Shown here: positions 7,642 to 57,819 of the stretch, in pieces
Layout of the letters: every line of letters begins with the position of its first letter
Numbering within the stretch: position 1 is the first letter of the stretch
Assembly (NCBI GenBank): GCA_964487255.1
Contig: CAZAQV010000002.1
Coordinates: 211,561 to 275,560 of the forward strand
Direction of reading: 5' to 3'
DNA length: 64,000 nt
From: an uncultured Polyangiales bacterium
GTDB lineage: Bacteria; Myxococcota_A; Polyangia; Polyangiales; CAZAQV01
Translations under genes and position numbers: made by a program
Notes under the pieces: model-generated
The model's database searches: none
Told to the model about the DNA's origin: nothing
The model's input: only the letters and a program-made list of their open reading frames with translations

Positions 7642-7975
7642 ATTTGCGAAGCGTACCGAACACACCCGTTCTCCACAACGCGGGCCATGGCCGATCAAGT
7701 GCAAGGGCCGTGAAGCAACTGAGCAAACTCACCGAACCTAAACGCCGCATCGGGATTTCCAGCGTTCTCGACTTGTCTAGTCAATGCTCCGATCTGTTCG
7801 GCTCATCACAGGCGAAGGTCGGGGAGCGGCAGGCGACATGCTTCGTTCGCCCCGCGCCACCAGTACATCTTCATGGTCAAAAAGGCCGGGTCGTTGTCGA
7901 CACGAATGTGCGTTTGAAGAAGTGTCTCGTCGCTGCAGGAAGGCGGCCATTGATCTTCGCTCAAGATCAGCGCGC

Positions 7976-12670: not shown

Positions 12671-12868
12671 CGCGGAAGGTTAGCAAGAGTCGCCGCCCTT
12701 CGATACCGCCCAAGACGCCGGCAGACCACGCCAGTCATGGCTCGAATCCGGAACCGCAGCCGCGCCGGAGTGTCAACACTGGCTTACAAAGCCAAGCCGC
12801 CGATTCGTCAATTCGCGGGAAAAGCACACGATTCGGGGTTGGAACGACGCTTGCTCTGTCTATCGCGC

Positions 12869-14587: not shown

Positions 14588-14589
14588 GC

Positions 14590-16113
14590 ATGAGTCGCGA
14601 CAAACTAAAAAACAGCGGTCGACGTGCGTTCTTGCGCGGCGCAGGTGGCGTGGCGCTCGGCCTTCCCCTGCTCGAGTACACCCATGGCACCACGTGGGCT
14701 GCACCCGACGGTTTCGCCAAGCGCGTCGTGGTCGTACTCAACCATGGCGGCGAAGCGATGTGCGTGTTCAAGGACGGCCAACGCGGCGGCGAACAATGGG
14801 GCACGGTCATTCCGAACATTGACCACTGGCTGCCCAAATCGGGCTCACGCTTCGGCGAGGCGCACGAAGTGTTCGAGGGCACGCCCATCTACGACAAGAT
14901 GATCGTGGCGCGCGGCATCGACAACCGCGTGTGCACCCAAGGGCGCTACGGCGGCGACCATACGCTCTCAAACTGCAGCGTTCTGACGGCGCGCTCCACG
15001 AAGTGCGAAAGTGGCGGCAGTCCGGCCGATGGAAAGTGTCCGTCCGAGGAGAGCGACGAGCACGCAACAGGCCCCTCGATCGATTGGGTCTTGGCGCAGC
15101 GCCTCAACGCAAAATTTGGCGGCGCGAGTAAACCCTTCAACCTGAGTATTCCGGGACACTACTATGGCAGCGGGTTCTATTGGGGCGACGGCGGCGAACA
15201 GCGCACCGAAGGCGAGTACAATCCACGCGCGGCGTTCGACCGAATCTTTGCGGGTGTCACGAGTACTGAAACCGGCCCTACGCCTGAGGAGGTCCGTGCC
15301 AACGCGATCAAAGGCAGTCAGCTAAACGGCCTCATGGACGCCTATCGACGCTTCTCATCTCGTCTCGGTCAATACGATCAGCAGATCGTGGACGCGCACC
15401 TGGATCACCTTTCGGACCTCGAGCGAGAAATTCAACAAATTGAGGTCTCGGCGGGTTGCGTCGTGCCCAATGCACCCAAGAACTACAGCGACTACTGGGC
15501 CGCCAACGCTGAACCCGACGTCATCGGCCCTCTTCACGCGAAGCTGATCGTTGCGGCCATGCGCTGCGGTCTTACCCATGTGGCAGACCTCGAGATCACC
15601 GACTTCCTTACTCCTTGGGCACCCTCGGGGCTGCAGCTCGAGTCGGGTTACGATATCGGCCACTCACTGGGGCACTGGGTCTCGGACCTCAAAGGCGACC
15701 CGAGCATGATCGCCAGGTGGGAACTCGAGGTAAAAGAAAACCGTGCCTGGCGTATGGGCCTCGTCAAGATCATTGCCGAGGGTCTCGATGCCGTGCCCGA
15801 GGGCGATGGCACCATGCTCGACAACTCGGTCGTGTTCTACACCAACGAGTTTAGCTGTGGCGGTATCCACAGCTCGACCGACGGCCCATATATGTTCATC
15901 GGCGGCGCTGGCGGCTACTTCAATACCGGCCGCTATGTCGAACTCAACGAAAACCGCAAACGCGACCCGAACTCGCGCGAAAGTGGTGGCAACAGCTACT
16001 CCAACAACAATGTATTCGTCTCACTGCTCAACGCGATCGGCGAGACCGACACGAGCTTCGGCGAGTCCCAATACATGAAAGTCTCCGGCGGCATACCCGA
16101 ACTCAGGGCCTAG
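14590..16113 (+). CDS. DUF1552-family protein with Tat-type signal
   Basis: ATG 14590 gives MSRDKLKNSGRRAFLRGAGGVALGLPLLE (twin-arginine signal). It is the usual downstream partner of DUF1592-type genes. Confidence 0.75.
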   Translation: MSRDKLKNSGRRAFLRGAGGVALGLPLLEYTHGTTWAAPDGFAKRVVVVLNHGGEAMCVFKDGQRGGEQWGTVIPNIDHWLPKSGSRFGEAHEVFEGTPIYDKMIVARGIDNRVCTQGRYGGDHTLSNCSVLTARSTKCESGGSPADGKCPSEESDEHATGPSIDWVLAQRLNAKFGGASKPFNLSIPGHYYGSGFYWGDGGEQRTEGEYNPRAAFDRIFAGVTSTETGPTPEEVRANAIKGSQLNGLMDAYRRFSSRLGQYDQQIVDAHLDHLSDLEREIQQIEVSAGCVVPNAPKNYSDYWAANAEPDVIGPLHAKLIVAAMRCGLTHVADLEITDFLTPWAPSGLQLESGYDIGHSLGHWVSDLKGDPSMIARWELEVKENRAWRMGLVKIIAEGLDAVPEGDGTMLDNSVVFYTNEFSCGGIHSSTDGPYMFIGGAGGYFNTGRYVELNENRKRDPNSRESGGNSYSNNNVFVSLLNAIGETDTSFGESQYMKVSGGIPELRA

Positions 16114-31396: not shown

Positions 31397-31491
31397 AGCT
31401 GTTCTTGCCACTTTGGTCCGCACCTGGGCGGCAGAAAGCCAGTCATTCTGTGGCGCGCAGGCGGCTCGATCTTTGCTTCAGCACTGGAGCG

Positions 31492-32811
31492 ATGAGACTC
31501 GCACGATTCGCCAAAGCGCTGACGATGGTCCTGGCGGTTGGTGCATGCACAAGCCCGACGGGTGGCGGTTCGCAAAAAGTCATTCCCTCGGGCAAGGCGG
31601 ACGGCCTGGTCGAAGCCCAGGGCCTTCGCGCCTGGTATCTCAAGGCGGACGGCCATACCGAAGGCGACACGCAGCTCGACGCGCAACTCATCTCTGCCCG
31701 CCCCCTCGGAACGCTCGATGCCTGGATCGACGGCCGCTATATCGGCTCACAGCGTGCGCCCATCGACGAGCCTACCATCCGCGAGCTCACCATCGACATT
31801 TCCACGCTCGAGCCCGGCTCCCACAGCCTGGTCATCGCTGATCGCGACAGCTTCTCGCGCGTCGTTGAACACGAGTTTTCGGTCAGCTTCCCACTTTACG
31901 TTGTCGTCTCCAACGACTGGGATACTTCCGACAACGACGATATCGAGTTTGAGCGGCAAGATCGTCTGCACGAAGAGCACCCCGAGCTGGTGCTCACTCA
32001 CTTCGTCGGTCCCTACACGTTTACGGACCCAGCGGTCAGCGAGACTCGCCGCGATTGGATCGTCAACTGGCTGCTCACCAACCAAGAGCAGTATGGCGAC
32101 GAGATCGGCGTGCATGTTCACGCTTACTGCAGCTTTATCGAAAGTGCGGGCATACCCTGCAAGAGTGAACCCGTCTACGCCGACAACTGGGGTCGCCCCG
32201 AGGGCTACACCGTCATCGTCAGTGCCTACTCCGAGGACGAATTCACCCAAGTCTTGCGGCACGCCGACGAGATCTTCGAGGAACGCGGCCTGGGCAAGCC
32301 GGTCACTTTTCGTGCGGGGGGCTGGTCGGCTGAACTCCACACGCTCAAAGCATTGGCCAACGCCGGCTACATCGCCGACACGAGCGCGGTCAACTGGCGC
32401 CGCCTCGAAGAGTGGGAGAACCACGCGACAGCGCCACTCTACTCTTGGAACCGCGAGCATTGGGCCAACATCAAGACGACTTCACAGCCCTACTACCCCT
32501 CCGAGTTCGACGCGCTAAGCGCCGAAGCGCCGAACCTACCCGTGCTTGAAGTGCCCGACAACGGTGCGCTCGTGGACTACGTTACGGCCCAAGAGATGAT
32601 CGATATGTTCCACGAGAACTGGCCCGAAGGCAGTGCGCTCGGCTCGCCGACCAACTACTCGATCGGCTATCACCCTCCCAGCCTATCGGCAGAGTTTTAT
32701 CAACGCATGGACGATGCGCTCAGCCACATCGACGGCTTTCTCTACAGCAAAGATGCCGGTCCGGTCATCTACGCGCCCCTGCGCGACATGCCCAGCGTCA
32801 ACTGGCCCTAG
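31492..32811 (+). CDS. Hypothetical lipoprotein
   Basis: ATG 31492 gives MRLARFAKALTMVLAVGACTSP (lipobox). The large globular domain was not confidently assigned to any family. Confidence 0.55.
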   Translation: MRLARFAKALTMVLAVGACTSPTGGGSQKVIPSGKADGLVEAQGLRAWYLKADGHTEGDTQLDAQLISARPLGTLDAWIDGRYIGSQRAPIDEPTIRELTIDISTLEPGSHSLVIADRDSFSRVVEHEFSVSFPLYVVVSNDWDTSDNDDIEFERQDRLHEEHPELVLTHFVGPYTFTDPAVSETRRDWIVNWLLTNQEQYGDEIGVHVHAYCSFIESAGIPCKSEPVYADNWGRPEGYTVIVSAYSEDEFTQVLRHADEIFEERGLGKPVTFRAGGWSAELHTLKALANAGYIADTSAVNWRRLEEWENHATAPLYSWNREHWANIKTTSQPYYPSEFDALSAEAPNLPVLEVPDNGALVDYVTAQEMIDMFHENWPEGSALGSPTNYSIGYHPPSLSAEFYQRMDDALSHIDGFLYSKDAGPVIYAPLRDMPSVNWP

Positions 32812-34013
32812 GGCTCTGGGCGATCCAACCACGCAATCGCGCGCACAGGCTCGTCAAGCAGCGGCCCAAGAAGGTCTCCGTTCTCCAAGTCGATAAGCAG
32901 GTCACCGGGCCCACCATCGGCATATTCAGCGCCAACCGCGTAGGGAAGGTTGGGGTGAAACGTACCGAGCGAATGCAGCAAGGGTTTGACCTCGATACGA
33001 TCTCCCGTCGCGAGGTTGACAACAAAGTAAGGTCCTCTTGCATGTATCGCCGACTCCGACTCGCTCGCAGCAAACCAATCGTACCTCGATCGAATCGGCT
33101 CACAGCCTGGTCCGATGAGTTCCTCAGCTCCGAAAGCGTCAATGCTCAAGTCGATGACACGGAAGTCGAAGCAAGGTTGGTCGATTTCAAGCCCAAGAAT
33201 CCATCGCTTTTCCTGCATGTGAACAGAGCCTGTTCGCGAACCATCCGATTCAGGATAGGGAGCTTCGACAAGCGTGTTTCCCGCGTAGTCCAACCAGCCA
33301 AAGACGGGTGGGTCTTCGAAGGTGTCGAAGAAGAGATAAGTCTGCTGCTCCACGTCAAACGGACCGGTTCCATAGAACAGTTCAACGGGCTCGATCGTCC
33401 CGTCTGAATGCACTCTGCGATATTGGCCATTACGCGTCGCCACAACGGCTGTCAGAGGATTCTCCAGAAAGAAGTCAGAGTGGTTCTCGTACAAGACACT
33501 CACATTCAAGTTCCGCGATGCGTAGTGAAGTGTGTTCCCACCATCCTTGAGGCAGGTGAACCAGAAGCCATTTCCTGACGGCTCCCAGATGACTTGCGAA
33601 AGGTTTCCGTTGCAGGTTGGTGAAAGGGAGACTTCCTGGTGGTCTCCGTTCACCAGATCGACCAAAAAGAGGCCAGAGTAGTCGTAGCCACGCCCTAGGA
33701 CGATAAGGGCGGTTTCGTCGGCTGGACTCCGCCGTATCCAGGCGTGAACCAGGCCATCCAAGCGCGGAAAAGTGGTCAACACGCGCCTTCCCTCGGGGCT
33801 AAGTTCGGTGACTCTGAAACTTCCGGCAGAGCTCCGGCTGACGGCCAACATGGGCGCAGGAGGGAGAACAAGCTCTCCTCGTGAAATCGGCGGGGCTGCA
33901 TCGGCTAACGGCGGGACCGTTGCATCAGCCCCAACCAGAACGATTTCGTGCGAACGCGCACAGGCGCAGACGGACAGAGCAACCGCCACGAGCAAGGTAA
34001 CCGGTCGAAACAT
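32808..34013 (-). CDS. Hypothetical lipoprotein
   Basis: The N-terminus is MFRPVTLLVAVALSVCACARS (lipobox). Composition is W/Y/G-rich and beta-rich. The 3' end overlaps the convergent gene by 4 nt. Confidence 0.55.
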   Translation of the reverse strand: MFRPVTLLVAVALSVCACARSHEIVLVGADATVPPLADAAPPISRGELVLPPAPMLAVSRSSAGSFRVTELSPEGRRVLTTFPRLDGLVHAWIRRSPADETALIVLGRGYDYSGLFLVDLVNGDHQEVSLSPTCNGNLSQVIWEPSGNGFWFTCLKDGGNTLHYASRNLNVSVLYENHSDFFLENPLTAVVATRNGQYRRVHSDGTIEPVELFYGTGPFDVEQQTYLFFDTFEDPPVFGWLDYAGNTLVEAPYPESDGSRTGSVHMQEKRWILGLEIDQPCFDFRVIDLSIDAFGAEELIGPGCEPIRSRYDWFAASESESAIHARGPYFVVNLATGDRIEVKPLLHSLGTFHPNLPYAVGAEYADGGPGDLLIDLENGDLLGPLLDEPVRAIAWLDRPEP

Positions 34014-34036: not shown

Positions 34037-34717
34037 CTACGGCTTCATACGACTGGCTTTTTCGTCAAGGCCGGAGGTGCCGAAGCGGGAGCGAAGGACG
34101 TCTACGACATCGAGTGGGTCGATGTCGCGGGCGAGGAGGCCTACCAGTGCATGGTAAAGCAAGTCGGCGGCTTCGCTTGCGACGCGTTTATCACTTTCGC
34201 CTGCGAGCGCATCGCAAAGCTCGCGCGCTTCCTCTGCAATCTTCTCGTTGATCTTCGCCACGCCACCCTCGAGCAAGCGCTTTGTGTAGCTCTTTTCGCC
34301 CGCAGCTTCTTTGCGGGCCCGAAGCACACGTGCGAGCTCAGCCAATGCCGGCAGCGCGACAGCTTTCGGCTCAGTGCCCGACGCATCTCTTTCACGATCG
34401 AGCCGCTCGAAAAAGCACGTCTGCTCACCGGTATGACAACTTGGCCCCGAGGGGTCGGCCACAAAGATCAGCGTATCGCCGTCACAGTCGAGCCACACGC
34501 TGCGAACATCGATGGTGTTGCCACTGCTCTCGCCTTTCATCCATTGCATCTCACGAGAACGCGAATAGAAGTGTGCCTTGCCGGTCGCGAGGGTCTTCTC
34601 AAGCGCTTTGCGGTTGCACCAGGCCAACATGCGGATCTCGCCGCCGAGGTCGGACTGCACGATGGCGGGCACAAGTCCCGCTTCATTCCACTTAAGCTTG
34701 TCGAGCATCTTACCCAT
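34037..34717 (-). CDS. hisIE: Bifunctional phosphoribosyl-AMP cyclohydrolase / phosphoribosyl-ATP pyrophosphatase
   Basis: The HisI part has GLVPAIVQ, AWCNRKALEKT, FYSRSR and CDGDTLIF. The HisE part has KSYTKRLLEGG and EAADLLYHALV. Confidence 0.9.
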   Translation of the reverse strand: MGKMLDKLKWNEAGLVPAIVQSDLGGEIRMLAWCNRKALEKTLATGKAHFYSRSREMQWMKGESSGNTIDVRSVWLDCDGDTLIFVADPSGPSCHTGEQTCFFERLDRERDASGTEPKAVALPALAELARVLRARKEAAGEKSYTKRLLEGGVAKINEKIAEEARELCDALAGESDKRVASEAADLLYHALVGLLARDIDPLDVVDVLRSRFGTSGLDEKASRMKP

Positions 34718-34765
34718 GGCGCTATTCTGCCCTCAGCGACCATTCGCACAACCAGAAAGAAGCCG

Positions 34766-35248
34766 CTATCCGCGGATAGCCTTCATACGAGCCTCGTGCA
34801 TCAGCCGCTGTATGTCGCTCAAGTGCGTCATCGCCTTGTCGGCAAGACGACTGCCCGACTGCGCCCCGTCGTCCTTCTCTCCCCGCACGTGTTCCATCAC
34901 CTTGGCTTTCTCTGCCAACGTGGCGGCATCGGCATCTTGGCCGGATTTGTGAAACACGAGCGCCTCAGAGACTAGGCTTCCCAGCGCCTGCATGGCCTTG
35001 CCTGCCGATTCGTCGATTGTCACGGAGAGCGCCCCCGCTCCCGCATTCACCAAGCCTGCGGCCAACTGGGTGGTTGCAGCGTCTCGCTGCCTCTCAATCG
35101 AGTGAAGCGCCGATTGGTGACGGACATTCTCCGCGTCTCGACTCGCCCTACGTTGCTCGGCTGCTTGGTCTTCGAGTTCAACGCTGAGCTTCGCGATCAT
35201 GTCGTCGATGCTTCCTGTCATAACTGGATGAGATGTCTTGATCTGCAT
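34766..35248 (-). CDS. Minor-translocator-like small helical protein (EspB/SseD/YopD-like), cassette gene P4
   Basis: ATG 35248 is preceded by GAAAGGAA. The protein is 160 aa and helical. It has a single Gly/Ala hydrophobic segment (LAAGLVNAGAGALSV) and is the last gene of the cassette. Confidence 0.5.
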   Translation of the reverse strand: MQIKTSHPVMTGSIDDMIAKLSVELEDQAAEQRRASRDAENVRHQSALHSIERQRDAATTQLAAGLVNAGAGALSVTIDESAGKAMQALGSLVSEALVFHKSGQDADAATLAEKAKVMEHVRGEKDDGAQSGSRLADKAMTHLSDIQRLMHEARMKAIRG

Positions 35249-35262
35249 ATTGTGTTCCTTTC

Positions 35263-36222
35263 CTACCACTCGCGAAGTGTTGCCATCTGCGCTTCGGCGC
35301 GTTCTTTTCGGATGCGCTCGAGCTGCTCATGGCTGCGCGAACTCTGTGCGAAGATCTCCTTGATGAGAGCCACTTGGTTGTCGGTGAGGACGTTGGCGTA
35401 CTCAACCTCTTCGCCAGCCTCTTCGCCGTCGAGGAGGTATCCGGTTTGGATTCGCTGCACGACCGAAGCGGCAGCGCCGTTTGCGGCCTGCAACACTTGG
35501 GTGACCGTCTTGACGGTTTCGGCAACCGTCTTGATCGCCTCGGCCGTTTGTGCGCCCACATTTACGACTTGAGCACCCGCCGCCGCACCATTCGCCGCGG
35601 AGCTCACAACGTTTGCAGCCGAGCTTCCAGCAGCAGCGCCACCACCTACAATGCCACTTCCGAGTGTCAACGCCGCACCCACGAGTTCGACACCGAGTTG
35701 GAACTTGGAAGCGTCTTCTTCACTGACAACGCCAAGCTCAACAGCAACATGAGTGACCGGCTTTGCGCACAGAATGAGTGCCGCGCCCGCAATCGCAAGC
35801 CCCGCACCAACGCCACCGGTACAAACCGCCGCAGCGACCGTCGTCGCAATCACTACGACCGCTTTGAGAACGTCCCCGAGCGGCCCAGAAAGACCGAGAA
35901 AACCGCCCGCTTCCTCTGCTTTCTTGAGCGCAACCTCCTGCATCAACTTCTGATGCTCCGCCCGCGACTGGTTCAGCTCGATACCAGACTCAGCACGCTC
36001 AACGCCGGCATCACGCATCCGTAGCTGCATCTGCATAAGCAACGAATCGGGATCAAGCTTGCTCGATTCGAGTACCATCGCCGCTCGGTCCATGCTCACG
36101 TCGCTGACGACTGTGGCGTATTGCTCTTCCGCTAAGCTCAGGGCGCCCACACTCAGCTCTCGAATCGCTTCCCGTCCAGCGGGCCCACTCGCCCCGGATC
36201 GATGTGTTGTTTGCATCATCAT
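35263..36222 (-). CDS. Major-translocator-like membrane protein (EspD/SseC/YopB-like), cassette gene P3
   Basis: A coiled-coil N-terminus ending KKAEEAGGFLGLSGPLGDVLKAVVVIATTVAAAVCTGGVGAGLAIAGAALILCA is followed by a second hydrophobic Gly/Ala stretch. The C-terminus is an amphipathic helix. Confidence 0.55.
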   Translation of the reverse strand: MMMQTTHRSGASGPAGREAIRELSVGALSLAEEQYATVVSDVSMDRAAMVLESSKLDPDSLLMQMQLRMRDAGVERAESGIELNQSRAEHQKLMQEVALKKAEEAGGFLGLSGPLGDVLKAVVVIATTVAAAVCTGGVGAGLAIAGAALILCAKPVTHVAVELGVVSEEDASKFQLGVELVGAALTLGSGIVGGGAAAGSSAANVVSSAANGAAAGAQVVNVGAQTAEAIKTVAETVKTVTQVLQAANGAAASVVQRIQTGYLLDGEEAGEEVEYANVLTDNQVALIKEIFAQSSRSHEQLERIRKERAEAQMATLREW

Positions 36223-36233
36223 CTCGGGTTCGT

Positions 36234-36896
36234 TTAAGCGAGATTACGCGTAATCGCCTGCGCACCTTCATCGAGTTTTTGCAGCAAGTTTGTCGCCAAC
36301 GTCACGATTTGTGTTCGCTGTTGCATCAGGGACTGCAGCTTCACCATCCGCAATTCATTTCCCGTATTGAGCTCTCGCTGATCGTCTTCGAGCTTCTTGA
36401 TTGCAGCATCGATCGTCTCAGCCTGAATACTCCGACGGCCGTGCGGTCCCATCGATGACTTGATGTCCTCCTCTAAGACAATACCGTGTGACTCGAGCAG
36501 CTCCTTCGCCGTCTGTGTCTTGCCATCGCCGCTCGCGACAAAGTTGTGACTCTTGTCCGTGTCGTTGGGCTCGATGTAAATACCCTCCTTGCCTGAAGCG
36601 GCCAGATGCTCCTGGAGCTCTCGAAGACCTCTGATCTTTTCTCCAATCTTCTTCGAATCTGCCTGGCTCACCTCAAGGTCGCTCATGCTGGCACGGACTT
36701 GGCCGTCGATGTCTTCCATCCGCTTTTTTGCAACGTACAGAATCATCTCTGGGCTCAGGGTCGCGAAGTCGCTGAGATCAACGCTGCTCACCACGGCGGG
36801 GCCAGTGAATCCGCGCACTTGGGTGCTCGCTCTGCTTGGTTCGCGGCCGTTGCTGTCCGGGGCGTACGAAACGGGCTGCCAGATAACGATTGTCAT
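36234..36896 (-). CDS. EspA/SseB-like filament/sheath-type protein, cassette gene P2
   Basis: The C-terminal half (AKELLESHGIVLEED...TIDAAIKKLEDDQRELNTGNELRMVKLQSLMQQRTQIVTLATNLLQKLDEGAQAITRNLA) parallels, by eye, the conserved C-terminal helical hairpin of EspA/SseB. Confidence 0.55.
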   Translation of the reverse strand: MTIVIWQPVSYAPDSNGREPSRASTQVRGFTGPAVVSSVDLSDFATLSPEMILYVAKKRMEDIDGQVRASMSDLEVSQADSKKIGEKIRGLRELQEHLAASGKEGIYIEPNDTDKSHNFVASGDGKTQTAKELLESHGIVLEEDIKSSMGPHGRRSIQAETIDAAIKKLEDDQRELNTGNELRMVKLQSLMQQRTQIVTLATNLLQKLDEGAQAITRNLA

Positions 36897-37150
36897 GAAT
36901 AGATTCCTTTCGGCATGGCGGAGAGGGAAAGGACAGACATGGCCGCGTCATCCACAGCTTCTTCGAACCGCGCTTGCAGTGACTCAAAAGCCCCATCACC
37001 GATGAACGCCTCGTCAATGTCGTCTGCTAGGTTGACGCCCGCCTGAGAAGCAAGGCTCTTGAGCTCAAGCGTCTGCCGTTCGAGCTCGAGCAAGATGCGC
37101 TCAAGTTGTTCCGAAAGACTTCGGTCGAAGAATGAAAATGAGTCGGCCAT
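36893..37150 (-). CDS. Small acidic coiled-coil protein (possible chaperone/partner), cassette gene P1
   Basis: ATG 37150 gives MADSFSFFDRSLSEQLERILLELERQTLELKSL... The protein is 85 aa and strongly acidic. An ATGA overlap couples it to P2. Confidence 0.45.
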   Translation of the reverse strand: MADSFSFFDRSLSEQLERILLELERQTLELKSLASQAGVNLADDIDEAFIGDGAFESLQARFEEAVDDAAMSVLSLSAMPKGIYS

Positions 37151-37350
37151 GTGCTGTTTTCCCTTTCCCCATCCTTCTCGGAGCAAGCGGCAGCACGGTT
37201 GCGAACTTTCTTAGGGAGTCCGTAAATTTTCTAAAAGGCTCGGTTTTCGTAGCTCTCGAAGCGCCTCAAGTACCCGACGGTAGAGTTGCTTTTCCCACCC
37301 AATGCCGCGGACTGTCGGAAAGTCCGCCATCGCAAGGCATCCGCGGCGAT

Positions 37351-39393
37351 TCACAACGACTCTAGGTACGCGACCAAGGCTTCCTTGTCCGTTCGACTCA
37401 AGTGCGACGAATGACCCATTTTTCCGTCCGTGCCATCGAGCATCGCGAGCAGCGTCGGGAACCGGCCATCATGGAAGTATGGCGCCGTGTTCGCGAGTCC
37501 AACGAGCGCGGGCGTATTGAAATCACTTTTTTGGTCCGCACTGGCGCGCACGATCGGGTAGCTCATCGTGTCCGAGAACGAACGCTTCTCGACATGGCAG
37601 CTCGAACACTCGGCCTGCTCGGAGTGAAAGATCGCCTTGCCTTTGGCAACGAGCTGCTTGCGGGAGAGGTCCGGCGCCTTGGTCGGTACTCGCAGGCTCT
37701 TGACGTAGGCCACCAATGCTTTTTGGTCATGCGCGCCAAGCCCCTTTCCGCCGAGCCGCTTAAAGGTCTGCGTCAGGTGATCGTCGATGCTCTTGGCGCC
37801 GCCGTTCCAACCGTAAGGCGCCGTACCGCTCAGCTTGCCCGCGAGCATGGGCGTTTGCCGCGGCCCGTTGGGCGTCGACCAGACCAGGCCGTCCTGTCGA
37901 CCCCCGGGGTGACAGCTCGCGCACGAACGGCCGTCCTTCGAGATGCGGCGATCGGTCGCGAAAAAGAGTTCGCGCCCGTGGGTCACCAACGGGTCACGGC
38001 TCACGAATGGCATCGCGTGGTTCACGATCTTTGGCCTCGCCGGATCGTTCGCAGCGTTAACCACACTCAGCTGCCGCGCTTGCTGAGACCACACGACGAG
38101 GCGATCGTGCTGCTCATCCCACGCGAGCCCCGTCGGTCCGGCGGGCACCTCGACCGAACCCCAGCCGCCATCGGAAACGACGGTCGAGTCTCCCTGACAG
38201 ACCACAAAAACCTTTCCCTCACGGTTGCTCGCGGCCGCTCGAGGAATGCGACAACGCGGCAGGTGCCCGAAACGTCGCTTTTTAGCGACGTTATCCGCTG
38301 TCGAAAGCTCGAGCAGTCGCTCTTGGACGGGACGTTCGGAGATGACGGACGAGCCGTAACCTGTGCTGATGCGCTGCGGCTCCCCGGGGAAGATTTCCGA
38401 AACCGGAATGATCACGTCATCGCCGTGGGACACCATCGCAAATCCATGTACAGGCGTGCGGCGGATCACCGGTTGGCGGACCGGCCTACGCCCAACGTGT
38501 TTGGGCAGGGCGATGGGGTGCTGTGGCCCAAAGGGATCGAGTTGGTTGACCATATGAAGGGGACGTCGATGTCGGATGTGACGCCTCACGACAGGCGTGT
38601 GAACACGGTGCGAGTGGTCCCGACTCGACACGCTCCAAGTATTGAGGTCGACGCGCGACACCTTGCCACCTGTCACATGGCTGACGAAAGCTTGCTTGCC
38701 ATCTCGGCTCACAACGGCTGCGAAGGGGTCGGCGTCCAGCTTGAGGCTCCGAGCCACAAAAGGCGCTCCGCCTGCGGGCATCTTCACTTCAGAGATCTTT
38801 GCGCCCCAGCGGCTCACGACGAGTGCGCGGTCCGATAACGGCGTCGCGGCGATGGCGGTGGGTTCGGTCGGGACCGGCACCACCGAATGCGCTCGCAGCG
38901 GTAGCGAAAGACTTGACGCGGGGATCAGAACCGCAAAGCGATGAACGTCGCTAAGTGTGACCAAGACACGTCCGTCCGGCAGCGTCAGCACCGAACTTGG
39001 TGTCGCACCAAGGCTCGTCTTCGCGAGCTGCTTGCCGCTCTCGACGTCCACCGTGAGCAGCGCACGCGCGTCCTCATCCGCAACGTAGGCGATCGTTCGT
39101 CCCGCCGCTCGCGCAAGCGATACGGTGCCGGACGTACGCTGAATGCGCGCCGGCTTCGGAGCGCTGGCCAGAAGCTGCGGTTTGGCGGGAAGAGTCGGTT
39201 GAGATTTGCCGCTGACCTCTGGCGTGGTCGATGCGGCGAACGACTCCGCGGCCAAGCCGCCATCGCTCGCCCCACATCCGGTCGCAACCACCAAGCAAAC
39301 GACCCACAAGCATGTAACCGCGAGCACCCAGAGCGCAGCACACGCCCTCACACTCCAGTCTGCATTACGCTTCGCGCTCCCCACGTCTCGCAT
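37351..39393 (-). CDS. Lipoprotein with beta-propeller-like N-terminal region fused to di-heme cytochrome c peroxidase/MauG-like domain
   Basis: The lipobox is in LVVATGCGAS. Two CxxCH sites are present (CASCHPGGRQDG, CSSCHVEK). PALVGLANTAPYFHDGRFPTL is typical of the CCP family. Confidence 0.8.
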   Translation of the reverse strand: MRDVGSAKRNADWSVRACAALWVLAVTCLWVVCLVVATGCGASDGGLAAESFAASTTPEVSGKSQPTLPAKPQLLASAPKPARIQRTSGTVSLARAAGRTIAYVADEDARALLTVDVESGKQLAKTSLGATPSSVLTLPDGRVLVTLSDVHRFAVLIPASSLSLPLRAHSVVPVPTEPTAIAATPLSDRALVVSRWGAKISEVKMPAGGAPFVARSLKLDADPFAAVVSRDGKQAFVSHVTGGKVSRVDLNTWSVSSRDHSHRVHTPVVRRHIRHRRPLHMVNQLDPFGPQHPIALPKHVGRRPVRQPVIRRTPVHGFAMVSHGDDVIIPVSEIFPGEPQRISTGYGSSVISERPVQERLLELSTADNVAKKRRFGHLPRCRIPRAAASNREGKVFVVCQGDSTVVSDGGWGSVEVPAGPTGLAWDEQHDRLVVWSQQARQLSVVNAANDPARPKIVNHAMPFVSRDPLVTHGRELFFATDRRISKDGRSCASCHPGGRQDGLVWSTPNGPRQTPMLAGKLSGTAPYGWNGGAKSIDDHLTQTFKRLGGKGLGAHDQKALVAYVKSLRVPTKAPDLSRKQLVAKGKAIFHSEQAECSSCHVEKRSFSDTMSYPIVRASADQKSDFNTPALVGLANTAPYFHDGRFPTLLAMLDGTDGKMGHSSHLSRTDKEALVAYLESL

Positions 39394-39426: not shown

Positions 39427-39915
39427 CTACGGGCCGAGAATCTTCTCGATATCTTGGTGGATCTTGTCGGTTTTGACCTTGCGGGCCAACGCCAGCTCCG
39501 AAATCAACAGTGACTCCGCCTGCTCAAGAAGACGGCGCTCACTAAAGCTGAGCTCCTTGTCCGACTTGAGACGGTAGAGGTCACGGAAGACCTTGGCGAC
39601 CTCAAAAGGGGAACCGCTGTTGAGCATCTCGTTGTACTCGCGCTGTCGACGATTCCATGGCTGCGACTTGACCGCCACTTCATCGGACTTGAGCACGTCC
39701 ATGACCTTTTTGACGTCATTGCGGGAGATCACGCGGCGAAGCCCCATCCGCTTGGCTGCGTCGACCGCCACAATCACCGTTCGAGACTTCTTTTCAAGCG
39801 TCTTGATGATGTAGAACTCGGTCTTGTTGCCCGCTATTTCCTTCGCTTGAACCGCACTGACTTCGCCCACGCCATGGGACGGATGCACTGCATAATCTCC
39901 GACCTTAAACTTCAT
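39427..39915 (-). CDS. carD: CarD/CdnL-family RNA polymerase-binding transcription factor
   Basis: ATG 39915 gives MKFKVGDYAVHPSHGVGEV... The protein is 162 aa, with a C-terminal ...SFSERRLLEQAESLLISELA. Confidence 0.9.
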   Translation of the reverse strand: MKFKVGDYAVHPSHGVGEVSAVQAKEIAGNKTEFYIIKTLEKKSRTVIVAVDAAKRMGLRRVISRNDVKKVMDVLKSDEVAVKSQPWNRRQREYNEMLNSGSPFEVAKVFRDLYRLKSDKELSFSERRLLEQAESLLISELALARKVKTDKIHQDIEKILGP

Positions 39916-40013
39916 TGGTCTTTTGCCCCTCAGGTATTGTCCCCCTGCTGAAACTCGTTTCAGTAGGTTTCTGGGCGTAGCATGAAGGCCTACCGCGTCA
40001 ACGCGATATCGAT

Positions 40014-40091
40014 GGCTCTTCACGGCTCCGCGTCGCAAGCACCGATGTGGTTATACCACATCGGCTTGCTTCGTCTGCGCACGCTCATCGC
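40014..40091 (+). repeat. Structured intergenic repeat, copy E4 (subfamily B) between recA and carD
   Basis: Sequence is GGCTCTTCACGGCTCCGCGTCGCAAGCACCGATGTGGTTATACCACATCGGCTTGCTTCGTCTGCGCACGCTCATCGC. Its flanks are near-identical to E2. The hairpin stem is different but still fully paired (CCGATGTGGT/ACCACATCGG). Confidence 0.65.
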
Positions 40092-40109: not shown

Positions 40110-41252
40110 TCAAGCCTGTGCGCGGGCGCGACCGTTGGCCGACGAGGCCCCGTTTTTCTTAGCCTTCGCGGAGCCACTCTCGTCGCTCTGCGAGGCGGCT
40201 TCTTGAGTCTCGGGGGCTTCGAGCAGGCCGTGCTTGATAAGCAGTTGTTTTTCAATATCTGCAAGCATTTCCGGATGCTCCTCGAGGAAAGAGCGCGCGT
40301 TATCGCGGCCTTGGCCGATACGATCGCCGTTGTAGCTGTACCAAGAGCCTGATTTATCAATGATTTTGTCCTCGACACCGAGGTCAAGGACGTCCCCGGT
40401 CCGGCTGATGCCGTGGCCGTAAAGAATGTCGAACTCGCAGGTCTGAAAAGGTGGTGCGACTTTGTTCTTCACGACCTTGACCCGTGTCCGGTTGCCGACG
40501 GCTTGGTCGCCAACTTTGATGGTGCCAATCCGGCGAATGTCGAGGCGCTGCGAGGAGTAAAACTTGAGTGCGTTACCCCCGGTCGTGGTCTCTGGGCTGC
40601 CGAACATCACACCGATCTTCATGCGGATTTGGTTGATGAAAAAGAGTGTGGTGTTGCTCTTATGAACCGTTGCGGTGAGCTTGCGAAGCGCTTGGCTCAT
40701 CAGACGCGCTTGAAGACCCACGTGACTGTCACCCATTTCGCCCTCGATTTCTGCCTTTGGAACGAGCGCAGCCACCGAGTCGATGACAATGAGGTCGACC
40801 GCGCCAGAGCGCACGAGCGTGTCCGCGATTTCAAGGGCCTGTTCACCGTGGTCAGGCTGAGAGACGAGCAGCTCGTCGACGTTGACCCCAAGCTTTCGGG
40901 CGTAGATCGGATCGAGCGCATGCTCGGCATCGATGAAAGCCGCAACGCCACCCTTCTTTTGGCACTCGGAGATAGCGTGAAGCGTAAGCGTCGTTTTACC
41001 GCTCGACTCCGGCCCATAGATTTCGACGATGCGCCCACACGCATAGCCCCCGACACCAAGCGCCAAGTCGAGCGAGATGGACCCCGTCGAAATGGTGGGG
41101 ATGTTGCGAACCGCGGCCTCGTCGCCAAGACGCATGATAGCGCCTTTTCCGTAGGCCTTTTCGATGGTGCCGAGCGCCAAATCGAGCGCTTTTTGCTTGT
41201 TGGAGTCGGTGTTGACGGTCTTGGATGCTGACTTTGTGTTGGAGCGGCTCAT
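40110..41252 (-). CDS. recA: Recombinase RecA
   Basis: Diagnostic segments are [15 protein letters not shown] (Walker A), VIDSVAAL and [28 protein letters not shown]. The protein is 380 aa, with N- and C-terminal extensions. Confidence 0.97.
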
Positions 41253-55698: not shown

Positions 55699-57819
55699 AT
55701 GGGATTCCACGCAATTCGTTTGACGCGACGCCCCCAGGGCAACTCCACCACCGGCTCGCTTGCGATTCTCGCAAGTGTGGGTGTCTTGGGGATCGCTTCG
55801 TTCACGCAGTTCGGGGCTGCCCTCGAAGAGAACGTAAAGGGCGAGACTCAGGCAAGTGCGTTCGCAAACCCGGACGATGGGGAGATGGCATTCAACTCGC
55901 CCAGTGAAAGCGCTCAGACGCCCAACGTTGAACTCGGCAGCAGCTCGTCTGCAGCGATCGATGGTGGCATCGCCAACAACCTGATCGACTACGTCGCGGG
56001 CAAAGGTTCTCGTCCATCCCAAATCCCTGCAGGCTCCGATGCCGATGAGTTACTTGATGAGGTGCTCAAGGCCGTCAAAACATTGGTCGGTGACGACACG
56101 GCAACAAAGAATGCCGTCACCACGGCACTCAAGAATAACCATGGCGATCTCGAAAAGATCCTCTTCGAGGGTATCAACGACATTAACGACGTAAGCGAAG
56201 AGGTTCGAACTGCGATCCTTGAAGGAATTGGCAAGCGAATCGCGGACGGTGAAGGCGTCGGTCTACTCGGCGAGATACTCGAATCACTTGAGAACCTTGG
56301 TCGGAACCTCGAAAAGAACCACGCCGCCGGTCGTGCAGAACTACGCAAAGTGCTCCGCGGTGAATCGATCGCCGATGAACCGGCCGCAGACGAGCCCAGG
56401 GCCAACACGCCGGCTTCGGATGACGCGAATACGGCAGACGAACCTACTGCGGATGACACGAGTGCGACAAACGAACCCGCTGCGAATGATACCAATGCGG
56501 CAGACGAACCTACCGCGGAACAACCGGCAGTCGAAGACTCAGACCAAGCTGGCGCTGGAGCGCTCGGGGCAGAGGAAACGGGCAAGGCGATCCTCGATGC
56601 CATCAACGCCAACCCCGAGGCCTCAGCGGCTGCGGCAACGCTGCTCGAAGATCCTGAAGTGATCGAGCTGGTGAGCGACGCCGCCAGCGGCAAGCTCAGC
56701 CTGGACGCGAAATCCATCATTGAGCTGCTGCGCGACAAGCCTGGCATCGTGGCGGTGCTCGAGGCGCTCGTCAAAGACAAGAAGGTGATGGCCCTACTGG
56801 AGAGCCAGGTCGATCCGCAGTTCCTGCCGCTGCTCAAACTCCTAGCCGCCAACCCGGACATCGTCGAGAAGATCGCCGGTTTCGTGCGGGGCGCAAGCCC
56901 GAGCGACATGGACGCACTGCTCGGCATCATCGATGCCGCGCAAAACGGAAGCTTCGATCCTGTTACCGACTTGCCCAAAGTCTTGACGCTTCTCGGCAAT
57001 GACCAGCTGATGGGTTTGGTCCGGGAACTGAGCCAAAATGAAGACGCGCTGGCCCTCGCTTCGCAGTATGTTCCGCCCGTCTATCTGCGGGTCATCCTGG
57101 AGCATCCGGAACTTATCCAAGACGTGAGCAACTACTTGCAAAATGCATCACAAGCCGAACTCGCGCTCGTCGCAGAGGTCATGAATGATGCGCGGAATGG
57201 CGAATTCAGCCTGGGGAAGGCCATGGAGCTGCTGCTCAACCCCGGCGCCTACGACCTGGTGAACAAGCTCTGGGATAGCGAAGCGGGACGCGCAGCCATC
57301 ATCGACTCGATCAAGGCATATGCTCCGGGAGGCCGAATCTGGGGCCCGATGCTTGGCTGGCCCGTCATCAACCGTTTCGTTCCGTCAGTGGCTCGCTTCA
57401 TCGGTCTACGCAACCGCGTTGGAACATGGAATGCGATCAAGATGACGTTCAACGGTTGGCTCACCAACGTGACGGGACAAGAATGCTCCGGCATCTTCAA
57501 CATGTGCCGCGTGCGCCAGGCGGGGGGCCTGTTCGCTGCCGGCGTGAAGAAAGTTGGCGGCTGGATCGGCGGCCTGTTCGGCGGCGGCGACGACGAACCA
57601 GCGAAGGCGGTTGGTACCACAGCACGCGAGCCCGTCACGACTGAAGGCACTCCGATGACACCAAGCGCTGGCGATGGGCCTTCGAGTGCAGCGCCCGCAA
57701 CGGTTGCGGCAAACCTACCCCCCGTTTTTGGCTATACGCCCGCGTTCCCAGGCTTGCTTCAACGCCAAATGATGCGCATCGCTGCGGAGCGCTCCCTCGA
57801 GAGCGCACCCAACGACTAG
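55699..57819 (+). CDS. Large secreted/membrane-associated helical-repeat protein, unknown family
   Basis: The protein is 706 aa. An N-terminal hydrophobic segment (LAILASVGVLGIASF) is followed by acidic ADEPTA-type repeats and long helical Leu-rich repeats. The tail is Gly-rich (GGWIGGLFGGGDDE). Confidence 0.6.
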   Translation: MGFHAIRLTRRPQGNSTTGSLAILASVGVLGIASFTQFGAALEENVKGETQASAFANPDDGEMAFNSPSESAQTPNVELGSSSSAAIDGGIANNLIDYVAGKGSRPSQIPAGSDADELLDEVLKAVKTLVGDDTATKNAVTTALKNNHGDLEKILFEGINDINDVSEEVRTAILEGIGKRIADGEGVGLLGEILESLENLGRNLEKNHAAGRAELRKVLRGESIADEPAADEPRANTPASDDANTADEPTADDTSATNEPAANDTNAADEPTAEQPAVEDSDQAGAGALGAEETGKAILDAINANPEASAAAATLLEDPEVIELVSDAASGKLSLDAKSIIELLRDKPGIVAVLEALVKDKKVMALLESQVDPQFLPLLKLLAANPDIVEKIAGFVRGASPSDMDALLGIIDAAQNGSFDPVTDLPKVLTLLGNDQLMGLVRELSQNEDALALASQYVPPVYLRVILEHPELIQDVSNYLQNASQAELALVAEVMNDARNGEFSLGKAMELLLNPGAYDLVNKLWDSEAGRAAIIDSIKAYAPGGRIWGPMLGWPVINRFVPSVARFIGLRNRVGTWNAIKMTFNGWLTNVTGQECSGIFNMCRVRQAGGLFAAGVKKVGGWIGGLFGGGDDEPAKAVGTTAREPVTTEGTPMTPSAGDGPSSAAPATVAANLPPVFGYTPAFPGLLQRQMMRIAAERSLESAPND

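Follow-up and report, generated by a model that had tools for sequence, protein, structure and literature searches.

[quoted passage not shown] Analyzed individually, P1–P4 of the window (the whole 64 kb stretch of DNA that was studied) gave no significant match to Pfam or NCBIfam, whereas profiles built at the family level recovered T3SS families for P2, P3 and P4. The three neighbouring genes point to the needle, SseC and SseD families, respectively, each a cognate T3SS family and in the canonical order.

Layout of the cassette

The four packed minus-strand genes described earlier, with their overlap and short gaps, were all found again from the open reading frames (ORFs), and the sequences quoted from them were correct. 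The stop codon of P1 (36893–37150, 85 aa) and the start of P2 (36234–36896, 220 aa) share an ATGA at 36893–36896, P2 is separated by 11 nt from P3 (35263–36222, 319 aa), and P3 by 14 nt from P4 (34766–35248, 160 aa). The longest ORFs of P1 and P4 cover 36893–37186 and 34766–35269; the ATG at 37150 was chosen for P1, the orthologues having the same start, and the ATG at 35248 for P4, the orthologues of which likewise begin with MQI. Also the housekeeping flanks proved to be as described: a cytochrome-c-peroxidase-like gene (37351–39393) and hisIE (34037–34717) are neighbours of the cassette, as are carD and recA.

The intergenic leader upstream of P1 (37151–37350, minus strand) presumably contains the promoter and the ribosome-binding site. 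A candidate purine-rich ribosome-binding site, GGGAAAGGGAAA, is present 6 nt ahead of the P1 ATG, and parts of the leader are kept in the two nearest relatives, namely GCAACCG and the purine-rich block preceding the ATG. The consensus scan did not find a sigma-70 consensus in the leader. At the other end, it identified a candidate terminator-like hairpin, GCTATCCGCGGATAGC followed by GGCTTCTTTC (34765–34780, minus strand), which overlaps the P4 stop codon and possibly closes the operon ahead of hisIE; the number of terminator-like sites in the region, eight, is not above the expectation from shuffled sequence (6.3 ± 2.3).

Similarity of the cassette proteins to type III secretion families

The sequence comparisons support P3 as a divergent SctE major translocator (SseC/YopB/EspD/IpaB family) through transitive, significant profile links. 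A profile of three P3 sequences, searched against 1.84 billion proteins, matched 84 cluster representatives, 30 of them at E ≤ 1e-10, and the links were full-length with E-values down to 1e-30. In a scan of 60 sequences, made up of the 57 best of the 84 profile matches plus two close homologues and the window P3 itself, the Pfam SseC model (PF04888; SctE) was detected in 26 (best E 1.6e-32), with no match in the window P3 at E ≤ 10. The PF04888 gathering score was passed by P0005, which has E 3e-28 against the P3 profile, and by the syntenic P3 orthologue P0014 (3.6e-19), and P0053 (7.3e-7) bears the NCBI name SctE. A broad P3 family profile, which contains canonical SseC-family members, matched the Ysc-type translocator AopB (3wxx_B; E 1.6e-11) in an alignment that covers the two hydrophobic helices as well as the N-terminal coiled coil, whereas a profile limited to the eight closest P3 homologues did not directly reach AopB or EspD. 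Among 26 T3SS proteins of the E. coli LEE, the best partner of P3 was EspD.

The major-translocator layout ascribed to P3 was upheld, hydropathy and the structural model being in agreement on a predicted transmembrane (TM) hairpin. The hydrophobic stretch at residues 114–157 (Kyte-Doolittle 19-aa mean up to 2.03) is broken by TGGVG and is compatible with a two-helix hairpin, and the model, from which only the secondary structure was taken as its pLDDT was low, has helices at 114–133 and 138–151 as well as long flanking helices at 79–108 and 281–318. The predicted layout thus consists of an N-terminal helical region, the hairpin at approximately 114–157, a third hydrophobic, Gly/Ala-rich helix at approximately 171–192 and a C-terminal amphipathic helix, in other words the central TM-helix pair between coiled-coil/amphipathic helices by which SctE is recognized.

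P4, which lies directly 3' of the SctE homologue P3, is supported by the family-level matches as a minor-translocator-like protein (SctB; SseD/EspB type), the SctB family (SseD/EspB/YopD) being covered by the models NF052420, PF05802 and NF038055. The NCBIfam model translocon_SseD (SctB) was the top match for 8 of the 12 P4 orthologues, in register, the best E-values being 3.6e-7 (locus L101), 4.5e-5 (L092) and 5.5e-4; the window P4 alone gave E 0.56. The P4 family also matched the SctB subfamily model (E 0.0071) and PF05802 (E 0.068). Because all the SctB and SseD matches of the family are below the NCBI equivalog cut-off, P4 is classed as distantly related rather than as an equivalog of SseD. 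In hhalign comparisons with the 26 LEE proteins EspB ranked first (E 0.0022), the alignment spanning the coiled coil into the Gly/Ala segment so that P4 residues 57–78 pair with the hydrophobic segment of EspB. The earlier assignment of P4 as a minor translocator stands at the level of the family, but the single Gly/Ala segment of this helical protein (approximately 57–78) is only mildly hydrophobic (hydropathy maximum 1.21).

For P2, profile and model results together support a needle/filament-like subunit with a C-terminal helix resembling that of SctF, the needle similarity being sub-threshold throughout. The Pfam needle model (PF09392, T3SS_needle_F) matched six of nine P2 homologues, the window P2 not among them, with sub-gathering scores (best E 9e-4); the matches are located at the extreme C-terminus and reach profile position 70–71 of 71. 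TIGR02105 matched three homologues (best E 0.011), and precomputed 'weak' PF09392 matches are present on both P2 paralogues of locus L097. The last 38 residues of P2 are collinear with EscF 36–73 to the last residue (approximately 26% identity), and the best non-repeat match of a P2 C-terminal HMM in the PDB was the needle fragment 7y6c_F (E 0.048); both alignments are to needles of the Ssa-Esc type. The C-terminal motif NSGNELxMxxLQSxMQQRxQ...AVIRNL is kept invariant in 12 lineages, though P2 proteins are otherwise only approximately 30% identical between lineages.

In the AlphaFold model of P2 (pLDDT 72.8), a small domain interrupts a long helical hairpin: the model has a disordered N-terminus (1–46), antiparallel helices at 49–101 and 159–219, and an insert at 105–158. 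With its 220 aa, N-terminal extension and insert of approximately 55 aa, P2 differs from SctF, a simple helix-turn-helix of approximately 70–90 aa, and its two long terminal helices, variable middle and position just 5' of an sctE homologue correspond to the EspA/SseB-style layout. No PF03433 (EspA/SseB) match was found in the nine homologues at E ≤ 1, however, and hhalign gave no meaningful alignment with EspA. In the Foldseek check of the model, nothing reached E ≤ 0.001; the EspA filament 7khw_A was listed non-significantly (E 0.12, prob 0.93, TM 0.41/0.49) and outscored by generic hairpins of the prefoldin type, IpaD and flagellin were also among the top non-significant matches, and XaxB (E 0.31) and PaxB (0.63–0.75) appeared within the range of E 0.3–0.75. 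Of the proposal that P2 is an EspA/SseB-type filament protein, the helical hairpin and a needle-like C-terminus remain, and a weak needle match takes the place of the PF03433 match.

P1, the first cassette gene, encodes an acidic (pI 4.05) helical protein that is of chaperone size as described, but similarity to small acidic chaperones of the CesAB/SseA/YscE type was not seen in the profiles: P1 and ten orthologues had no Pfam or NCBIfam match, and hhalign comparisons with CesAB, EscE and EscG gave nothing. The orthologues are 79–93 aa long and always occupy the first position in every full cassette found. Size, charge and position alone make P1 a candidate small chaperone, or a regulator, for P2.

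The order P2-P3-P4 is that of espA-espD-espB and sseB-sseC-sseD, as previously noted. With P1 included, the cassette follows the order of the SPI-2 (sseA-sseB-sscA-sseC-sseD) and LEE loci of the Ssa-Esc family, i.e. small acidic protein, filament/sheath-like protein, SctE and SctB, and shares their tight packing; SseD is the best curated match of the P4 family, and EspD and EspB are the best LEE partners of P3 and P4. There are also several differences. Identity to the canonical SPI-2 and LEE members is undetectable by BLAST, P2 lacks a PF03433 match, and no SscA/CesD-type TPR chaperone gene is present in the window. P3 (319 aa) and P4 (160 aa) are shorter than EspD/SseC (374–484 aa) and EspB/SseD (195–312 aa).

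The matches could in principle be driven by composition, P2–P4 then being unrelated coiled-coil or Gly/Ala-rich membrane proteins of the ClyA/XaxAB/Nhe or tape-measure-like type. The window proteins indeed have no significant direct matches, Ala/Gly-rich hydrophobic stretches attract spurious ones, the window P4 weakly matches a phage tape-measure model (E 0.008), one P4 orthologue matches NheB (E 0.052), and XaxB and PaxB are in the Foldseek list. Such false homology is nevertheless highly improbable, as three neighbouring genes lead to cognate T3SS families in canonical order, the P3 links are full-length and include proteins above the curated Pfam threshold, additional genes in two of the orthologous cassettes have weak matches to T3SS chaperones, and no toxin family has a comparable score. 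The XaxAB/YaxAB, Nhe/Hbl and AhlABC toxins likewise have adjacent genes for helical-bundle proteins, a hydrophobic helical hairpin and a multi-component pore, but the matches to alpha-pore-forming toxins are non-significant and all significant links of the cassette are to T3SS families. An identity as a ClyA, XaxAB or Nhe-Hbl toxin was rejected, with no significant match for P2 or P4 and nothing for P3.

Conservation and surroundings in related lineages

The cassette was found in 11 other independent lineages, in all of them beside hisIE and, wherever the flank was captured, beside carD. The assemblies are uncultured and only Polyangiales/Sandaracinaceae-like or unclassified Myxococcota, and the surroundings in the loci examined consist of housekeeping genes (recA, carD, hisIE, prs and ribosomal protein genes). 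This recurrence, together with dN/dS values of 0.07–0.21 for all four genes, similar to those of the neighbouring hisIE and cytochrome gene, identifies P1–P4 as real, selected genes; the ratios indicate purifying selection, by which a function is maintained. For P1, dN/dS is 0.10–0.17 with unusually low dS.

Machine genes were not found near the cassette. A Pfam search of the 30 largest ORFs of the window identified no injectisome gene, and six-frame tblastn with the 26 LEE proteins gave nothing below E = 0.01 in the 64 kb, both in line with the earlier observation that no ORF there resembles SctN, SctV, SctC or SctRSTU. No sct machine gene was present either in the flanks (up to 10 kb on each side) retrieved for the related loci of the 11 lineages. 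Unlike SPI-2 and LEE, the cassette is neither within nor beside an injectisome cluster in the sequence covered, its neighbours being the core-genome genes carD and hisIE. This absence, as well as the very high divergence from canonical families, would fit a decaying, non-functional remnant of a lost injectisome island. That reading is hardly credible and already largely refuted by selection and conservation, since the four ORFs are intact in each lineage wherever the contig spans them, the dN/dS values resemble those of hisIE and the cytochrome gene, the P2 C-terminal motif is invariant and the translational coupling signals are kept in the relatives.

No translocator-type class II TPR chaperone gene is present in the cassette or elsewhere in the window. 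Four of the orthologous cassettes (L096, L097, L100 and L103) include an additional gene encoding 86–113 aa just 5' of the P3 homologue, a position comparable to that of lcrH ahead of yopB in Ysc-type systems. The top matches of the additional genes of L096 and L097 were, weakly, the T3SS chaperones SctY and LcrH/SycD (E 0.001–0.02), that of L103 matched generic TPR models only, and that of L100 had no match in the profile scan. Unlike LcrH, PcrH and AcrH, the additional proteins are small, approximately half the size of LcrH.

Proposed export and possible function

Sec and Tat signals are absent from the sequences of all four proteins. Since Sec signals are lacking, export could proceed via a T3SS apparatus encoded elsewhere in the genome, and the cassette is favoured, with modest confidence, as a functional distal T3SS module exported by such a machine. 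It would then be the distal, target-contacting part of a type III injectisome. A Polyangiales/Sandaracinaceae-like lineage has fixed the cassette itself in its core genome, beside carD and hisIE. P2 would polymerise via its needle-like C-terminal helix, with the N-terminal extension and the insert as in EspA-type filaments, and P3 (SctE) and P4 (SctB) would jointly enter the membrane of the target cell, either prey or eukaryotic, to form a translocation pore. P1 would be a small acidic partner, probably preventing P2 or P4 from polymerising inside the cell.

It is also conceivable, if unlikely, that the T3SS-derived cassette has been exapted in a lineage without an injectisome, as a set of alpha-helical membrane-inserting or pore-forming proteins working independently of a machine, for instance to kill prey on contact; the proteins would function unaided or by another route such as outer-membrane vesicles, lysis, or a Tad/Kil-like or other secretion system. 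The constant location amid housekeeping genes and never beside sct genes in the loci examined agrees with such an origin, as do the extreme divergence from canonical families and the function maintained by purifying selection. We know of no precedent for T3SS translocators acting without a T3SS, however, and the lack of Sec and Tat signals also argues against it. So does the conservation of the P2 polymerisation helix to the last residue, which would be expected if P2 still docked to and passed through a T3SS channel, and so do the chaperone-like small genes of the four orthologous cassettes, two of them SctY/LcrH-like. Surveys in which myxobacterial T3SS genes are reported mainly from class Myxococcia, in degenerate form and with neither needle nor translocon (PMC3459982, PMC10196010, bioRxiv 10.64898/2026.07.10.737566), speak for exaptation and against a T3SS-exported module, but SctV and SctR homologues are reported from some Polyangia genomes (PMC11509652).

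Export by a T3SS encoded at a distance has a parallel in Chlamydia, in which the T3SS genes are distributed over several loci and the needle, tip and translocator genes are far from the core machine genes (PMC3459982). There the machine is known to be present; here it is presumed, and the host lineage is a free-living myxobacterial clade. Within the same phylum, the T3SS* of Myxococcus xanthus (mxan_2434–2464) is described as 'needleless', with neither needle nor translocon (PMC3459982, PMC12075869), and the missing parts are exactly those that the cassette resembles; T3SS* belongs to Myxococcia, while the cassette was found only in the Polyangiales/Sandaracinaceae-like and unclassified Myxococcota assemblies. 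Tentatively, and at rather low probability, a Polyangia lineage at the family or order level may carry in its core genome either an injectisome-free, exapted membrane-attacking device, self-sufficient or exported differently, or the needle and translocon missing from a needleless T3SS-like basal body directed against prey and not against eukaryotic hosts.

The myxobacterial T3SS, for which the literature describes no needle, tip or translocon and a distribution mainly in Myxococcia, serves as a model for an ancestral, non-injecting T3SS (PMC3459982, PMC12075869). The conserved, selected needle-like/SctE/SctB cassette in Polyangia shows that translocon homologues are present in the phylum, and it provides a handle on possible protein injection by some myxobacteria, be it into prey or into eukaryotic cells, and also on translocator function without an injectisome. 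Such fast-evolving families can escape scans of single sequences entirely and come to light only with lineage-specific profiles, and in public records the cassette proteins are labelled simply as hypothetical.

Similarity of the cassette proteins to type III secretion proteins

As single sequences, P1–P4 had no significant match in Pfam or NCBIfam, the sole thematic hint being the translocon_SseD model on P4 (E 0.63), and sequence searches of the PDB with P2 and P3 found no match. The firm evidence for homology comes entirely from family-level searches. A word-indexed search found two close homologues of P3 (63–67% identity), and the HMMER profile of these three sequences detected 84 proteins at E ≤ 1e-3 among 1.84 billion cluster representatives, 30 of which reached E ≤ 1e-10; nearly all have lengths of 260–400 aa, and the alignments cover most of each protein. 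The Pfam family PF04888 (SseC/YopB/IpaB/EspD) was present in 26 of the 60 sequences scanned, which comprised P3, its two close homologues and the top 57 matches (best E 1.6e-32). Two numbered matches of the profile, P0005 (E 3e-28) and P0014 (E 3.6e-19), scored 39 and 32.5 bits against SseC, above the gathering score of 30.2, and a third, P0053 (E 7.3e-7), is annotated in NCBI as 'type III secretion system translocon subunit SctE'. The profile of all 60 sequences reached the Aeromonas translocator AopB in the PDB (3WXX; E 1.6e-11), covering the coiled coil and both hydrophobic helices. In P3 itself, a 44-residue hydrophobic stretch interrupted by TGGVG (residues 114–157) is followed by a second Gly/Ala-rich helix. 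The narrow P3 profile had no match in the PDB, and since the profile of the eight closest homologues reached neither AopB nor EspD, the link between P3 and SctE is a transitive one, each step of it being strong. Among 26 type III secretion system (T3SS) proteins of the E. coli LEE island, EspD was the best partner of P3 in hhalign. An AlphaFold model of P3 from the 3-sequence alignment (pLDDT 46) was set aside in the fold search.

P4 has a single, mildly hydrophobic Gly/Ala segment. The NCBIfam model translocon_SseD was the top match in eight of the 12 P4 orthologues, with collinear alignments (protein about 36–180 against profile about 14–144 of 152) and E-values of 3.6e-7, 4.5e-5, 5.5e-4, 0.047, 0.24, 0.54 and 0.56. 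One orthologue matched a SctB subfamily model (E 0.0071), and Pfam SctB2 gave 0.068. EspB was the best of the LEE proteins for P4 (hhalign, E 0.0022), the alignment pairing ...IEEKKAAATAALVGGIISSALGILGS with ...IERQRDAATTQLAAGLVNAGAGALSV. The sequence-only reading of P3 as the major translocator and P4 as the minor one is supported by these family matches with high confidence. Two other readings were rejected: phage tape-measure protein for P4, which reached only E 0.008, and ClyA/Xax/Nhe-type toxins, for which all matches were non-significant.

P2 is about 26–50% identical between lineages, with an almost invariant C-terminus (NSGNELxMxxLQSxMQQRxQxIxLxxNLLKxLxxxxxAVIRNL). The needle family PF09392 (T3SS_needle_F) was found on six of nine P2 homologues (best E 9e-4), always at the extreme C-terminus and ending at profile position 70–71 of 71; it is also present in the precomputed annotations of both P2 paralogues of locus L097. 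TIGR02105 (SctF) matched three family members (best 0.011). The last 38 residues of P2 align without gaps to residues 36–73 of EscF, with coinciding C-termini and about 26% identity. When an HMM of the 62 C-terminal residues was compared with the whole PDB, the best non-repeat match was a 43-residue T3SS needle fragment, 7y6c chain F (E 0.048). In the entry that chain goes under the name 'EscG/YscG/SsaH family needle protein co-chaperone', and since the sequence AMLKAQFAMQQYSVMIGYQSSVMKTVKDMMMSIISK resembles the C-terminal helix of a needle subunit, this molecule name may be misassigned.

The AlphaFold model of P2 from eight sequences (pLDDT 72.8) consists of a disordered N-terminus (1–46), two long helices (49–101 and 159–219, pLDDT about 90) and a small alpha/beta insert (105–158). 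Foldseek found no significant match for it in the PDB; the non-significant list was led by prefoldin and included IpaD, the EspA filament (E 0.12, prob 0.93, TM 0.41/0.49), XaxB and flagellins. The P2 family profile found nothing relevant in the PDB, neither Pfam nor hhalign against EspA connected the homologues examined with the EspA/SseB family, and hhalign of P2 and P1 against single LEE proteins gave weak alignments. With moderate confidence, P2 can be described as a needle-type subunit that is extended at its N-terminus and carries an inserted domain. Of the proposed EspA/SseB-type filament, the needle-like C-terminus and the helical hairpin hold at this level of confidence and the family assignment does not: the architecture is EspA-like or flagellin-like, and membership in the EspA family is not demonstrable.

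The proposed homology of the cassette to T3SS translocon and filament genes is therefore upheld, to the degree given for each protein. False homology, in which the matches would reflect composition alone, would have in its favour the silence of the single-sequence scans; a compositional coincidence is not plausible, because every informative position points to its cognate T3SS family, in canonical order, and we regard this explanation as very unlikely.

Gene layout, P1 and small chaperone-like genes

ORF calling placed four minus-strand ORFs at 34766–37186: P1 (36893–37150, 85 aa), P2 (36234–36896, 220 aa), P3 (35263–36222, 319 aa) and P4 (34766–35248, 160 aa), each with a start codon common to its orthologues. 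The described ATGA overlap of the P1 stop and the P2 start is seen in the sequence, and the gaps of 11 nt (P2–P3) and 14 nt (P3–P4) are exact. The G+C content of the cassette equals that of its surroundings (0.58–0.60). On the same strand lie recA (40110–41252), carD (39427–40038) and hisIE (34037–34717), and between carD and P1 a cytochrome-c-peroxidase-like gene (37351–39393, minus strand). Its 680-aa product has a hydrophobic segment at the N-terminus and C-terminal di-haem cytochrome c peroxidase/RoxA-like motifs. This gene is present only in the window's own subclade (the window and the contigs L001 and L004); in more distant relatives the cassette directly follows carD.

P1 is acidic (pI 4.05), and no similarity was found for it or its orthologues in Pfam, NCBIfam or hhalign against the LEE proteins. 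Its proposed role as a chaperone agrees with its size, charge and position and has no counterpart in sequence similarity to any family; P1 is accordingly a putative chaperone on those three features alone. In four loci an extra gene of 86–113 aa lies immediately upstream of the P3 homologue (L096 9744–10004, L097 9729–10004, L100 9705–9974 and L103 4921–5262), in two of them overlapping its start. The copies of L096 and L097 had weak best NCBIfam matches to SctY (0.001 and 0.003) and LcrH/SycD (0.021), that of L103 matched generic TPR models only, and that of L100 had no match. The window cassette has no such gene before P3. In L096 an ORF of 60 aa also separates the homologues of P3 and P4, and the two P2 paralogues of L097 are 212 and 293 aa long.

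Distribution and selection

The cassette was found in 11 further independent lineages. The loci were Logan contigs (L001–L003, L004–L009 and L093; the six shortest of L001–L009 hold the cassette only in part), an ENA contig (L092), a 545 kb ENA/NCBI contig (L096), the assemblies GCA_041389625.1 (L090), GCA_905168835.1 (L097/L098), GCA_048623775.1 (L100) and GCA_030427835.1 (L101), and two JGI metagenome contigs (L102, L103) found by a metagenome scan with the P2 profile. One ENA record with the cassette is ERZ25039495 contig_103554. The relatives are labelled 'Polyangiales bacterium' or 'Myxococcota bacterium' in NCBI. hisIE adjoins the cassette in every lineage and carD wherever that flank was captured; L101 has no carD call, and L102 and L103 include the hisIE side only. 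The conserved neighbourhood runs from M16 peptidases, cinA, recA, a gene without assigned function and carD through the cassette to hisIE, followed by a short-chain dehydrogenase, an HTH regulator, prs, rplY, pth, rpsF/R, rplI and dnaB. The gene between recA and carD (317–336 aa, no Pfam domain) is conserved in most cassette-bearing relatives (L090 7454–8407, L092 3–977, L093 390–1400, L097 5026–5997, L100 7195–8157, L101 7538–8548); it is missing from the window, in which recA directly adjoins carD.

Among GTDB species representatives, the RecA sequences nearest to that of the window came from two Sandaracinaceae MAGs, CAYZDM01 and JBGAQA01 (80 and 77%; by tblastn 83 and 77%). In both, carD directly adjoins hisIE, and the cassette lies neither between these two genes nor next to them (L010 1629–2790, L011 7296–9126). 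The RecA of these MAGs is as close to that of the window as are those of L090 and L097, which carry the cassette; some close relatives have therefore lost the cassette or never gained it, and the carD–hisIE locus shows a presence/absence polymorphism at a conserved site. None of the genomes behind 80 fetched RecA loci had the cassette; a weak P1-like match in one of these comparison loci, L059, got no support from the ORF layout. The P3 profile had no match in GTDB genomes or JGI metagenome contigs, the back-translated patterns being too specific, and word-indexed searches with the P2 and P3 family alignments found in-clade proteins only.

Between the window and L090/L097, RecA is about 82–84% identical and P3 about 30%. 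The cassette proteins evolve very fast, a behaviour known from the tip and translocon proteins of T3SS (PMC3459982). Against the two closest relatives, dN/dS was 0.07–0.21 for P1–P4, an approximate estimate with dS saturated for P2–P4, and the four genes are under purifying selection. In view of this selection and the conservation of the cassette, its decay as a remnant is highly improbable. In the same comparison the dS of P1 was unusually low (0.50–0.83), that of P2–P4, carD, hisIE and the cytochrome gene being 1.5–3.8 (saturated). The DNA of the 3' half of P1 is nearly invariant, third codon positions and the purine-rich site preceding the P2 ATG included, which suggests constraint on mRNA or DNA itself besides that on protein, e.g. 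through translational coupling, a regulatory structure or a binding site.

Machine genes and the route of export

The absence of injectisome genes from the window, as earlier described, was borne out. The Pfam scan of its 30 largest ORFs found none, only housekeeping and regulatory genes (including M16 peptidases, GlmS, an aminotransferase, kinases, CinA, RecA and an acyl-CoA dehydrogenase), and six-frame tblastn of the whole window with the 26 LEE proteins of E. coli O157 (including EscN, V, C, J, D, R, S, T, U and SepQ) gave no match below E = 0.01. Neither paralogues of the cassette genes nor a TPR chaperone gene were found within the window. Also the flanks of the relatives, fetched up to 10 kb per side where the contig was long enough, had no T3SS machine genes in precomputed Pfam lists or in tblastn with LEE proteins.

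The favoured explanation, held somewhat above even odds, is that the cassette proteins are exported by a T3SS encoded elsewhere in the genome, because conservation of the needle-type C-terminal helix extends to its last residue, because P1–P4 lack Sec signals (no N-terminal signal peptide in any of the four, read directly from the sequences) and have disordered, acid-poor N-termini, and because several orthologous cassettes include chaperone-like genes. The proteins would then pass through a T3SS channel and assemble on it, and these three features make sense only with such a passage and assembly. The main rival, an exapted membrane-attacking module working independently of a machine, is a distinctly less probable possibility; the lack of linked machine genes would agree with it, and the same three features speak for T3SS export instead.

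To our knowledge, no translocon has been described from Polyangia. The components belong to known families, and host clade, location and divergence depart from known systems: the cassette has a fixed place in the core genome, between carD and hisIE, and no machine is linked to it. Its divergence is extreme, and public records list its proteins as 'hypothetical protein' only. Myxobacterial T3SS have been described without secretin, needle, tip and translocon (PMC3459982; PMC12075869, 'needleless T3SS*'), mainly in Myxococcia (PMC10196010; bioRxiv 10.64898/2026.07.10.737566); one comparative study reported SctV and SctR homologues in Polyangia genomes (PMC11509652). If the cassette-bearing genomes prove to be without an injectisome, the system would be considerably more unusual.

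Elsewhere in the window, a gene pair at 12737–16113 (plus strand) has PSD/PSCyt domains (DUF1592, DUF1588, DUF1585, DUF1595) and DUF1552 (HXXSHH). Such pairs are characteristic of genomes of the Planctomycetes and Myxococcota type, and this one fits a Polyangiales/Myxococcota-type genome here. Four ORFs had no Pfam match at E ≤ 1e-5: 55699–57819 (plus, 706 aa), 6268–7704 (minus, 478 aa), 31405–32811 (plus, 468 aa) and 32808–34013 (minus, 401 aa). The last of these, immediately downstream of hisIE, starts with a lipoprotein-like signal that has a Cys at its end.
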